This document shows, one piece after another, positions 37,239 to 41,940 of a stretch of 64,000 nt of DNA; the first letter of the stretch is position 1, and every line of letters begins with the position of its first letter. The position numbers were made by a program, and so were the translations under genes. Source of the stretch: Escherichia coli (GTDB taxonomy: Bacteria; Pseudomonadota; Gammaproteobacteria; Enterobacterales; Enterobacteriaceae); the NCBI RefSeq assembly GCF_048403405.1, contig NZ_CP183129.1, one strand, 5' to 3'. The notes under the pieces were generated by a model that ran no database searches, was not told where the DNA came from, and was given only the letters and a program-made list of their open reading frames with translations.

Positions 37239-37772
37239 ATGAAAAAGTATATTATTCCCTTCGTTGCGACAACGTTGATGTTTAGCGCAACAACCTTCGC
37301 CAAGGATGTCGATCAAGGAACGCTAACCATTAGAGGAGAAGTTGTTGATACAACGTGTTACTTTGTTAATGGTGATTCGACAACAGATATCGTTGTCGAA
37401 GATGTTGTAACCAGTGCAATGAATCAACTTATCAATAATGAAATCTATACTTTAAAAACCGGTTCAACCTCTCATGACTTAGAAATTCAGTGTGACGGCA
37501 ATACAGCCCCAAGTATCGAAGTGCTAGCATCAGAGTTTGATGCTAATAACTTTACGCTGAATAAAGGAACTGCTGAGAACATTGGCTTTGCCATTTTCCT
37601 CGATGATGGAACTTTGACCAGAATGAGACCGGGGTTAAAAACACCGCTGAAAGATAATGGCTCTGGTCAATATTTTCTTAATTTAAGTGCACAATATGCC
37701 CGCACAAGTGGCAATCCTGTTACAAAAGGCTCCGTAGAGTCAACCGTAACGATTAAAATCAGTGCAGATTAA
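37239..37772 (+). CDS. fimbrial major subunit (chaperone-usher pilin)
   Basis: 177-aa ORF, N-terminal signal peptide MKKYIIPFVATTLMFSATTFA, conserved Cys pair (C40/C85 region), SD AAGGA; first gene of operon. Confidence 0.8.
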   Translation: MKKYIIPFVATTLMFSATTFAKDVDQGTLTIRGEVVDTTCYFVNGDSTTDIVVEDVVTSAMNQLINNEIYTLKTGSTSHDLEIQCDGNTAPSIEVLASEFDANNFTLNKGTAENIGFAIFLDDGTLTRMRPGLKTPLKDNGSGQYFLNLSAQYARTSGNPVTKGSVESTVTIKISAD

Positions 37773-37781
37773 CGTTTTTTG

Positions 37782-37810
37782 CCGGTAGCTCTGCTACCGG
37801 TATTATTTAC
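37782..37810 (+). terminator. intra-operon stem-loop (partial terminator/attenuator) after pilin gene
   Basis: CCGGTAGCTCTGCTACCGG perfect 7-bp stem followed by TATTATTT, between pilin and chaperone genes. Confidence 0.45.
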
Positions 37811-37821
37811 GGAGTGATTAC

Positions 37822-38505: not shown

Positions 38506-38517
38506 CAGGAAAAAGTC

Positions 38518-40968
38518 ATGTTAAGGACGACACGATGGGTCGCTGCTATTATTTTTTTGTATTCTTTTCCGGGTTATGCTGAAGAAACTTTTGATACGCA
38601 CTTCATGATTGGCGGCATGAGAGGAGAAAAAGTTTCCGAATATCGTTTCGATAATAAACAACCGCTTCCAGGAAACTACGAACTTGATTTTTATGTAAAT
38701 CACCAGTGGCGTGGGAAAAAAGATATCACGATCCCAGAGTCACCAGCCAAACCATGTCTGCCTAAGGTGCTGCTAACCACACTGGGGGTAAAGACCGATA
38801 ACCTGAATACAGAAGATAATTGTATTTTACTGGATGAAGCGGTTCATGGTGGACAATATCAGTGGGATATCAGTGAACACCGACTAAATTTAACAGTACC
38901 ACAGGCGTATATCAATGAACTTGAAAGAGGCTACGTTCCCCCAGAAAGTTGGGATCGCGGCATTGATGCTTTTTATACCTCCTATAATTTAAGTCAGTAT
39001 CGCTCTTATGACAGCAATAATAACAGTAATACAGCCAGTTATGGCCGGTTTAACAGCGGATTAAATTTATTTAGTTGGCAGTTACACTCTGATGCCAGTT
39101 ATAGCAAACCTGATGATATGAAAGGCAAATGGCAAAGTAATACTCTTTACCTGGAACGTGGCTGGTCGCAAATATTAAGCACAGTTCAGATAGGAGAAAA
39201 TCACACATCCTCACTCATATTCGACTCTCTGCGATTTAGCGGAATACGCTTATTTCGCGATATGCAAATGCTACCTGATTCTATGCAAAGCTTTACACCT
39301 TTAGTACAAGGTGTTGCGCAAAGTAACGCCTTGATAACGGTTTCGCAAAATGGCTATACCATTTACCAAAAAGAGGTTCCCCCAGGACCATTTACTATCG
39401 CAGATTTGCAACTTTCGGGCAGCGGCTCTGATCTCGATGTCAGCATTAAGGAAGCAGATGGTAGTGTTCGTTCCTTTTTGGTGCCCTACTCTTCCGTGCC
39501 CAATATGCTGCAACCTGGTGTTTCAAATTTCGATTTTATCGCCGGACGCAGTCAGATATATGGTGTCAAGAATCAGGAGGACTTTCTCGAGGCAAATTAT
39601 ATATATGGCCTCAACAATCTTTTGACACTTTATGGCGGTATGATTTTATCCGATAACTATAATGCTATAACTCTGGGAAATGGTTGGAATACACCGCTGG
39701 GAGCAATCTCTTTTGATGCTACCCGATCGAGTAGTAAGTTAAATAATGATACCAGACACGAAGGTACGAGCTATCAGGTCGCCTATAATAAATATCTATT
39801 GCAAACGGCTACTCACTTTAGCGTGGCCGCCTGGCGTTATGCTTCGCAGGATTACAGGACATTCAGCGACCATCTTTACGAAAATGATAAAATAAATCAT
39901 CAGAGTGACTATAACGATTTTTATGATATTGGCAGAAAAAATAGCCTTTCTGCCAATATCATGCAACCTTTATCCAATAATCTGGGAAATGTATCATTAA
40001 GTGCGCTTTGGCGGAATTACTGGGGGCGAAGTGGAAATGCTAAAGATTACCAATTCAGTTATTCAAATAGCTGGCAACGCATTAGTTATACTTTCTCTGC
40101 CAGCCAATCCTATGATGAAAACGATAAAGAAGAGGAGCGTTTTAATCTGTTTATCTCCATTCCTTTCTACTGGGGGGATGATATTGCCAAAACACGTCAC
40201 CAAATTAACTTATCGAATTCGACCTCATTTTCCAAAGATGGCTATTCCTCCAACAATACTGGAATTACTGGCATAGCCGGTGAACATGATCAGTTAAATT
40301 ATGGTATATATGTTAATCAGCAACAACAAAATAATGATACCTCGCTTGGTACGAATTTAAGCTGGAGAACTCCCATCGCCATAATAGATGGCAGCTATAG
40401 TCATTCTAAAAACACCTGGCAAAGTGGTGGAAGTATTAGTAGTGGATTAGTTGTCTGGCCCGGTGGTATTAATATCACTAACCAACTATCCGATACATTT
40501 GCAATTCTGGATGCACCTGGGTTAGAAGGTGCACATATTAATGGACAAAAATACAACCGAACAAACAGCAAAGGCCAGGTTGTTTACGACCTGATTATAC
40601 CTCATCGTGAAAACCATCTGGTACTTGATATAGCAAACAGTGAAAGTGAAACAGAATTGCAGGGCAATCGTCAAATTATTGCGCCTTACCGTGGAGCAGT
40701 TTCTTATGTGCAGTTTACAACTAACCAACGTAAGCCCTGGTATATACAGGCACTGCGTCCCGATGGTTCGCCATTAACCTTTGGCTATGACGTACTGGAT
40801 CTCCAGGAAAACAATATTGGAGTCGTTGGCCAGGGTAGTCGCCTTTTTATTCGCGTAGATGAAATCCCCACTGGCATAAAAGTTGCTCTCAATGATGAAC
40901 AGAACTTATTCTGTACTATTACTTTTCAACACGTTATCGATGAAAACAAAACATATATATGCCAGTAA
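38518..40968 (+). CDS. fimbrial outer-membrane usher (FimD/PapC family)
   Basis: 816-aa ORF, signal peptide, usher-like size and sequence; 12-bp spacer from chaperone. Confidence 0.88.
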   Translation: MLRTTRWVAAIIFLYSFPGYAEETFDTHFMIGGMRGEKVSEYRFDNKQPLPGNYELDFYVNHQWRGKKDITIPESPAKPCLPKVLLTTLGVKTDNLNTEDNCILLDEAVHGGQYQWDISEHRLNLTVPQAYINELERGYVPPESWDRGIDAFYTSYNLSQYRSYDSNNNSNTASYGRFNSGLNLFSWQLHSDASYSKPDDMKGKWQSNTLYLERGWSQILSTVQIGENHTSSLIFDSLRFSGIRLFRDMQMLPDSMQSFTPLVQGVAQSNALITVSQNGYTIYQKEVPPGPFTIADLQLSGSGSDLDVSIKEADGSVRSFLVPYSSVPNMLQPGVSNFDFIAGRSQIYGVKNQEDFLEANYIYGLNNLLTLYGGMILSDNYNAITLGNGWNTPLGAISFDATRSSSKLNNDTRHEGTSYQVAYNKYLLQTATHFSVAAWRYASQDYRTFSDHLYENDKINHQSDYNDFYDIGRKNSLSANIMQPLSNNLGNVSLSALWRNYWGRSGNAKDYQFSYSNSWQRISYTFSASQSYDENDKEEERFNLFISIPFYWGDDIAKTRHQINLSNSTSFSKDGYSSNNTGITGIAGEHDQLNYGIYVNQQQQNNDTSLGTNLSWRTPIAIIDGSYSHSKNTWQSGGSISSGLVVWPGGINITNQLSDTFAILDAPGLEGAHINGQKYNRTNSKGQVVYDLIIPHRENHLVLDIANSESETELQGNRQIIAPYRGAVSYVQFTTNQRKPWYIQALRPDGSPLTFGYDVLDLQENNIGVVGQGSRLFIRVDEIPTGIKVALNDEQNLFCTITFQHVIDENKTYICQ

Positions 40969-40980
40969 AAGGAGTTTACT

Positions 40981-41940
40981 ATGAAGTGGCTTTTATTAAT
41001 CACCTTGAGTCTATATTCTTTTATTGTGCAAAGTGCTCCCTGTGCAGTGACCAATGTCGGTGAACAACGTGGAACATATATACTCAAGCCACTGAGTATG
41101 AAAGGAAATCTAACTGCCGAGAAAATTGAAAACACCGGGAATATCATTGAGTGTGCAGACTTGCAAGAGACGACCAACGCCATTAAAGTTCATTTCTTAA
41201 CACAGAACGCTTTAAGGTTTAAAGTCGGAAGTCGTCATTATATTATTAATTTCCCATTTGAATCTGACGGTAAAAAAATAGAGCTTCCAGGGAAGGCATC
41301 TTATAATTTAGAAGAAATGCTATCTGCGATAAATTTCACCATTCCATATTCTATCGCATCTGTATCAGATAGTTCTAACACCGCAGACATTTTTCCAGGA
41401 ACTCCTTTTCCTTTGTTGTTCGAAATTGAAGTGAGTTCATGTACAGGGAATAATACTAATTGTAATAGCGTCCGCTTTAATTTTAATTTAAATACTATTT
41501 TACAGGTAAATTTAATGACCTGTGGTTTTGAAGATCAATCCATCGACACTGGACGATTTGTACTGTCTCGTATCAATAATGAAAATTATCAGTTTCATCA
41601 TATAAGATTTGACTGTATCCAGGGTGAGCAAGGTGAATTAGTTTTTGAACCTAGTGATGTTGAATATTACTTTGAGCCAGTGACAATACAGGATTCAGGA
41701 ACCAGCATATTAAAAAATGATTTAGAAAACAGTGAGGACGGTGCGGGTCAAATAGGCTTTCAACTCTCCAATGATGGTACGAATGAAATGCAGTATGGTA
41801 AAAGCAATTACTACTCTTTTCAGCATCCCCATGAAGGAAGTAATCAGATTCCTCTATTTATTCGCCCGCGTACATATGGAAATAATGTCTCAAGCGGGCA
41901 AATAATGAGCCGAGTCAAAATCGTGGTAATGTACAACTAA
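40981..41940 (+). CDS. fimbrial tip adhesin / minor subunit (two-domain)
   Basis: 319-aa ORF with signal peptide, AAGGAG SD, last gene of cluster; size and position typical of FimH-like adhesins. Confidence 0.7.
   Translation: MKWLLLITLSLYSFIVQSAPCAVTNVGEQRGTYILKPLSMKGNLTAEKIENTGNIIECADLQETTNAIKVHFLTQNALRFKVGSRHYIINFPFESDGKKIELPGKASYNLEEMLSAINFTIPYSIASVSDSSNTADIFPGTPFPLLFEIEVSSCTGNNTNCNSVRFNFNLNTILQVNLMTCGFEDQSIDTGRFVLSRINNENYQFHHIRFDCIQGEQGELVFEPSDVEYYFEPVTIQDSGTSILKNDLENSEDGAGQIGFQLSNDGTNEMQYGKSNYYSFQHPHEGSNQIPLFIRPRTYGNNVSSGQIMSRVKIVVMYN

Follow-up and report, generated by a model that had tools for sequence, protein, structure and literature searches.

Evidence for an intact Yeh-like chaperone-usher operon at the rpsT-nhaR locus of an Escherichia coli genome

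A stretch of 64,000 nucleotides of Escherichia coli DNA (contig NZ_CP183129.1; hereafter the window) carries four co-directional genes, for a pilin, a chaperone, an usher and a putative tip adhesin. The region is very probably an intact Yeh-like chaperone-usher operon of the γ4 clade, equivalent to O-island 1 (OI-1), or loc1, of E. coli O157:H7 and paralogous to yeh.

The four genes and their products

The genes (Table 1) are preceded by ribF, yaaY, rpsT and espX1 and followed by the convergent nhaR and nhaA. The guanine-plus-cytosine (GC) content falls from a window average of 50.4% to 36.7% over 35298-41940, the very low GC remarked on in an earlier note that was made from the letters alone. 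That note had placed four open reading frames (ORFs) where they were found here, each with a signal peptide and a Shine-Dalgarno sequence and with spacers of 12-49 bp. The spacers are 49, 12 and 12 bp in order; the Shine-Dalgarno sequences are AAGGA 6 nt upstream of the pilin ATG, GGAG 7 nt upstream of the chaperone GTG, AGGA for the usher and AGGAG for the fourth gene. All four products begin, as read by eye, with a Sec signal peptide (basic N-terminus, hydrophobic core and small-x-small cleavage site), putatively cleaved at TTFA|KD in the pilin, PVHA|GV in the chaperone, PGYA|EE in the usher and VQSA|PC in the fourth protein. The frames had been described as complete and undisturbed, with inactivating lesions named as what would speak against this; base-level inspection of the operon found no lesion, and none of the ORFs contains an internal stop. 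The RefSeq annotation of strain 4621, whose sequence is identical, has the same four coding sequences, GTG start included.

Table 1. Features of the low-GC segment and its surroundings (window coordinates)
Feature	Position	Strand	Remarks
Low-GC segment (espX1 and fimbrial operon)	35298..41802	.	IS1 instead in K-12; equals O-island 1 of O157:H7
espX1	35516..36937	+	473 aa; pentapeptide-repeat type III effector-like (RefSeq annotation of identical sequence)
AT-rich upstream region	36938..37238	+	301 bp; putative operon promoter region
2.44-kb deletion, commonest E. coli allele	37195..39636	.	removes pilin, chaperone and usher codons 1 to ~373
Pilin gene	37239-37772	+	177 aa; ATG start
GC-rich hairpin	37780..37802	+	10-bp stem, 3-nt loop, then TTATTT; terminator scan; between pilin and chaperone genes
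Chaperone gene	37822-38505	+	227 aa; GTG start
Usher gene	38518-40968	+	816 aa
Fourth gene	40981-41940	+	319 aa; putative two-domain tip adhesin
GC-rich hairpin, CTCCCCCA...TGGGGGAG	41946..41970	.	8-bp stem; between convergent fourth gene and nhaR; read by eye

Profile searches agree with the earlier assignment of the first three genes. The usher has its N-terminal, barrel and C-terminal domains (PapC_N, 4.4e-35; Usher, 1.7e-166, over model positions 2-549 of 549; PapC_C, 8.2e-9) and scores 1480.9 bits with the NCBIfam model NF011763, for a cut-off of 933 and a next model at 525 bits. The chaperone has both immunoglobulin-like domains (PapD_N, 2.6e-40; PapD_C, 1.7e-6); its best NCBIfam match is StcB, and its relatives in PDB are CupB2 (5.7e-34), YadV, SfaE, FimC and PapD. 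The GTG start and the motifs GTRIIYP and LLWRP noted before are present. GTRIIYP aligns with GTRVVFP of CupB2 and GTRVIY of YadV, and NRIKLLWRP with SRFKLFFRP and TRIKLFYRP of solved chaperones. In PapD, the conserved residues R8 and K112 anchor the C-terminus of the subunit; judging by the alignments, the window chaperone keeps this arginine and lysine of the subunit-binding cleft.

The product of 37239-37772 is predicted to be the major pilin. It matches Pfam Fimbrial over residues 31-175 (9e-9), and its best NCBIfam model is YehD (3.3e-36; 124.7 bits for a cut-off of 136). Hydrophobic residues alternate along the mature N-terminus, KDVDQGTLTIRGEVV, which reads by eye as the N-terminal extension used in donor-strand exchange. 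The C-terminus, ...VTIKISAD, had been correctly described as non-aromatic and taken to be odd. The description stands and the oddity does not: it is an end of YehD type, and the lack of an aromatic residue is common to the pilins of the family (...VMRVAQD in YehD, ...LTVVTE or ...LTVVVD in other members).

The operon promoter presumably lies in the AT-rich region upstream of the pilin gene, where a scan gave a single promoter-like site, at 37141-37170. The earlier note took the very low GC to suggest silencing under laboratory conditions, and this region may be silenced. A search for repeats and GATC sites upstream of the operon, aimed at phase-variation elements, gave weak AT-rich inverted repeats and one GATC site, at 37179, with neither a fimS-like invertible element nor a pap-like GATC pair. 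The hairpin that follows the pilin gene folds at -19.1 kcal/mol (z -3.6). Equivalent hairpins of differing sequence are found after the pilin gene of yeh in K-12 (L006) and O157 (L007) and in L008 and L009; hence, in every Yeh-family operon examined, the position is kept and the sequence is not. By analogy with other fimbrial operons, the hairpin is probably an intra-operon attenuator of read-through or a stabiliser of messenger RNA (mRNA) that raises the ratio of pilin to assembly machinery.

The fourth protein and the Yeh family

The fourth protein gives no sequence match in Pfam, NCBIfam or PDB. An exhaustive search shows that its family is small, with 43 representatives, and its full-length members share 23-43% identity. 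In the alignment of this family, the C-terminal half has a conserved pair of cysteines, a GAGxVGF motif and a ...VKVVVxYN end. Six of 15 members match Pfam Fimbrial, and the family profile matches the pilin domain of FimH weakly (E 0.015). The AlphaFold2 model (mean predicted local distance difference test, pLDDT, 83.6) has a beta-rich receptor-binding domain at residues ~20-176 and a pilin domain at ~177-319 that ends in ...KIVVMYN and has no N-terminal extension of its own. The best Foldseek matches of the model are FimH, FocH, PapG, LpfD and CupB6, and CfaE is also matched over the full length. The genes of distant homologues, with 29-43% identity, close a pilin-chaperone-usher-X operon in all four contigs examined, two of them at the yeh locus, between mrp and rcnB. 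The earlier suggestion of an adhesin is thus well supported by predicted structure and synteny, if by no profile match: the fourth protein is taken to be a two-domain tip adhesin on account of the fold predicted for it, the relatives that it has and its conserved place after the usher.

In RefSeq, the intact fourth gene is usually named "hypothetical protein" (L004, L012 and L014, against L001, L005 and L017), and "fimbrial family protein" is the name of what are usually pseudogene copies, plus one intact copy. The intact adhesin is under-annotated because of the first of these habits. On account of the intact copy named "fimbrial family protein", the product name was rejected as a marker of intact and pseudogene copies, and only length-based counts were used.

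The order rpsT-espX1-[operon]-nhaR is the same in the window, in O157:H7 (L001) and in Sakai (L032). The O157:H7 locus has the same gene order and sizes, with 96.6% DNA identity over 7 kb; the two ushers are both of 816 aa, with dN (non-synonymous changes per site) of 0.013 and dS (synonymous changes per site) of 0.089. The Sakai counterparts are ECs_0019 (a pseudogene), ECs_0022 (usher), ECs_0023 (chaperone), ECs_0024 (pilin) and ECs_0025 (espX1). The pseudogene marks a difference between O157:H7 and the window: in OI-1 the fourth gene has a +1 frameshift after codon 98, is 961 bp long and stops at codon 109, whereas in the window it is continuous over 319 codons. The O157:H7 usher of the rpsT-nhaR locus is labelled "Yeh-like", under the γ4 column heading, in Table S2 of Wurpel et al. 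2013, and YehB belongs to γ4 (PMC12778044). The published Yeh-like primers for the polymerase chain reaction (PMC8249706) map within the usher gene of the window, at 38758 and 39445, and give a product of 688 bp, equal to the published size. The locus is thus one already catalogued and not a new kind of system.

The closest relative of the operon is Yeh of K-12 (yehDCBA), with 58% identity for the usher (YehB), 56% for the chaperone (YehC) and 27%, over the full length, for the pilin (YehD). Yeh and Salmonella Stc share with the window operon the layout of pilin, chaperone, usher and adhesin. The earlier note regarded a minimal operon with a single pilin as unusual, which does not hold, as Yeh, Yhl and Stc pili normally have four genes with a single pilin (PMC12778044). 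The non-aromatic end of the pilin and the hairpin after its gene are also common to Yeh and the window. However, yeh lies between mrp (apbC) and rcnB, and the window operon between espX1 and nhaR; yeh has yehE (DUF2574) upstream, whereas no DUF2574 ORF precedes the window operon. The adhesins also differ: no sequence similarity is detectable between the window adhesin and YehA, nor any sequence match with PDB 9N4G, the receptor-binding domain of K-12 YehA (named YehD by its depositors). A receptor-binding domain homologous to that of 9N4G or 8V9V, with its two-helix flap, was not found in the window adhesin.

A second candidate for identity was the Yhl pilus (PDB 8V9V; PMC12778044), a γ4 system with a minimal four-gene operon that is present in O157:H7 and whose usher and chaperone are, respectively, 59% and 57% identical to those of the window. 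This identity was rejected, since PDB sequence searches with the window adhesin were empty and YhlD (8V9V) matches the adhesin of the O157:H7 yeh locus, where it is an allele of that adhesin gene (L007:5312-6346). Hence, two operons whose adhesins are unrelated bear similar names, "Yeh-like" in Wurpel 2013 (rpsT-nhaR) and "Yhl / Yeh-like" in the 2026 structural paper, and setting these two loci apart is a useful clarification. Exchange of adhesin genes seems to have taken place between operons of the Yeh family: at the yeh locus of other enterobacteria, the last gene of the operon encodes an adhesin that belongs to the window family, with 33-43% identity, and not to the YehA type (L008:7001-7960 and L028:5001-5969).

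Distribution and loss of the locus

A megablast search of the 7-kb region against 5,426 complete E. coli genomes matched some part of the locus in 4,302, always at the same site. The commonest allele carries the 2.44-kb deletion of Table 1. Its ~2,435 carriers among the genomes, BL21 and many B1 strains included, are those in which the match begins no earlier than query position 2399. The breakpoints are identical, and a blastn comparison of L003 with the window, together with the junction sequence, shows a GGT microhomology at the junction. The usher remnant of this allele has no stops and a ratio of non-synonymous to synonymous polymorphism (pN/pS) of 0.165, which suggests that the deletion is young or has been spread by recombination. 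In K-12-type genomes, the insertion sequence IS1 replaces 35298-41802, and the fourth gene survives as its final 138 bp (window 41803-41940; L002:3553-3690), adjoining IS1A and annotated in RefSeq as a partial "fimbrial family protein" pseudogene. The earlier note had the operon absent from K-12, which is true of all but this remnant. Because the remnant lies beside IS1, the difference reflects loss of the island from K-12 and not its gain by this strain.

Intactness was examined by way of 13 rows taken at even spacing from the full-length class, of which nine were fetched, three more were of O157:H7 type and one was unfetched. All four ORFs are intact in seven of the nine fetched loci; one of the others has a frameshift in the chaperone gene and one in the fourth gene, the latter kind also being present in two further O157:H7 records. 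The intact loci come from divergent lineages, among them ETEC6335 from a pig and others from humans, chickens and cheese. This small sample suggests that ~60% of the full-length class, about 1 in 7 complete genomes, are fully intact. By length, the fourth gene measures 959 or 961 bp in at least 16 of 51 full-length rows, and it is full length in 3,633 genomes. The idea that selection has kept the fourth gene after the deletion of the operon was dropped, its pN/pS in seven deletion-class genomes being 0.23 against 0.165 for the dead usher remnant.

The low GC of the island, its absence from K-12 and, in the table of Wurpel 2013, the absence of Yeh-like from phylogroup B2 strains would be expected if the lineage of this strain had recently gained it by horizontal transfer, as an insertion relative to K-12. 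This is highly improbable: the 138-bp remnant beside IS1 contradicts it, and the matches at one site in 4,302 genomes and the clean internal junction of the deletion allele argue the same way. From these three observations, the island is old in E. coli and has been repeatedly lost; its original acquisition by an ancestor is likely. A more serious rival holds that the operon is a genetic relic, intact here by chance, unexpressed, without benefit and heading for the loss seen in most E. coli. Several points weigh against the reading as an intact Yeh-like operon, and part of them favour this rival. The 5′ part from pilin to usher is kept in only 1,202 of the 5,426 genomes (22%) and missing from ~78%, as in a locus decaying across the species, and inactivating lesions have arisen independently, with L005 and L013 hit in the chaperone gene and O157:H7, L005 and L018 in the fourth gene. 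Between lineages, all four genes give pairwise dN/dS values of 0.02-0.2, but such values record past coding constraint and are no proof of present function, because the non-functional usher remnant has a similarly low pN/pS. Promoter-like sites upstream of the operon are no commoner than in shuffled sequence, and the scan identified no promoter. Confidence in the model of the fourth protein is only moderate over the N-terminal domain (block pLDDT 63-89). A 2021 paper reports the role of Yeh-like fimbriae as undetermined (PMC8249706). Against the relic stand the seven loci, from divergent lineages, in which the whole operon is intact and the large excess, per site, of synonymous over non-synonymous changes in the 2.4-kb usher gene. 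We consider the relic unlikely, though far less so than a recent gain.

The remaining rival concerns the fourth gene, which would mainly encode a regulator of flagellar motility like FmrA, rather than a structural adhesin, and would couple the locus to motility control. The full length of this gene in 3,633 genomes, many without the rest of the operon, could be put down to such a role, but its retention in deletion-class genomes is matched by that of the dead usher remnant and is therefore no sign of selection. The protein carries a Sec signal peptide, a predicted two-domain adhesin fold and a canonical pilin domain; no DNA-binding domain was found in it; and the motility data come from the 108-codon frameshift fragment, not from the 319-aa protein. 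A regulatory role is therefore improbable, and the tip adhesin is preferred.

Assembly, motility and neighbouring features

The assembly of the operon's products can be outlined from the established chaperone-usher pathway. All four would be exported by Sec; the G1 strand of the chaperone would cap the open groove of each subunit, with the arginine of GTRIIYP and the lysine of NRIKLLWRP holding its C-terminal carboxylate. The two-domain adhesin would enter the usher first, because it has no N-terminal extension, and end at the tip, after which copies of the single pilin would add by donor-strand exchange through theirs. The hairpin after the pilin gene would probably keep pilin mRNA above the downstream messages. 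The product may be a thin, flexible fibre typical of γ4 fimbriae, as Yeh fimbriae of this clade are under Ptet expression (PMC7098969). What the analysis shows is which genes these are, that they are intact, their orthologues, the family they belong to and how they are distributed; for Yeh-like fimbriae themselves, we infer assembly, expression and receptor binding by analogy only.

The published regulator FmrA sits inside the frameshifted adhesin gene, and therefore the O157:H7 results are not transferable to strains with an intact gene. Tentatively, and with slightly more confidence than we give the relic, we suggest that the receptor-binding domain of the adhesin is one without a solved counterpart, that FmrA is the exported stump of its first 98 residues, and that motility is repressed only incidentally, by a misfolded fragment in the periplasm. 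It might act, for example, by envelope-stress signalling and not as a dedicated regulator. If so, strains with the intact gene, this one included, would be free of the motility effect. Few E. coli chaperone-usher types still lack an assigned function, and Yeh-like is among them (PMC8249706); extraintestinal and animal isolates carry intact copies. The locus is thus of modest importance, and for these two reasons the intact allele is the right starting material for work on expression, receptor and structure.

The limits of the low-GC segment come from blastn of the K-12-type locus L002 against the window, junction sequences, GC and the Sakai annotation (ECs_0019 to ECs_0025). Within it, espX1, whose protein has weak pentapeptide-repeat matches, is a co-directional neighbour in the same island and outside the fimbrial operon proper. 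Several deletion-class genomes (L003, L022, L023, L024, L027) have a frameshifted or truncated copy of this gene, which is intact in the window. The hairpin between the fourth gene and nhaR is a possible bidirectional terminator, which the terminator scan left uncalled because its loop is of 9 nt and no T run follows. An Rfam scan of 34400-42100 gave zero matches. Farther on, at 44545-44847 and adjoining dnaJ, there is a hokC/mokC ORF with a full-length sok antitoxin RNA (Rfam RF01794, 119.5 bits). In K-12, a copy of IS186 occupies this place. That copy is absent here, and therefore the module may be undisturbed.

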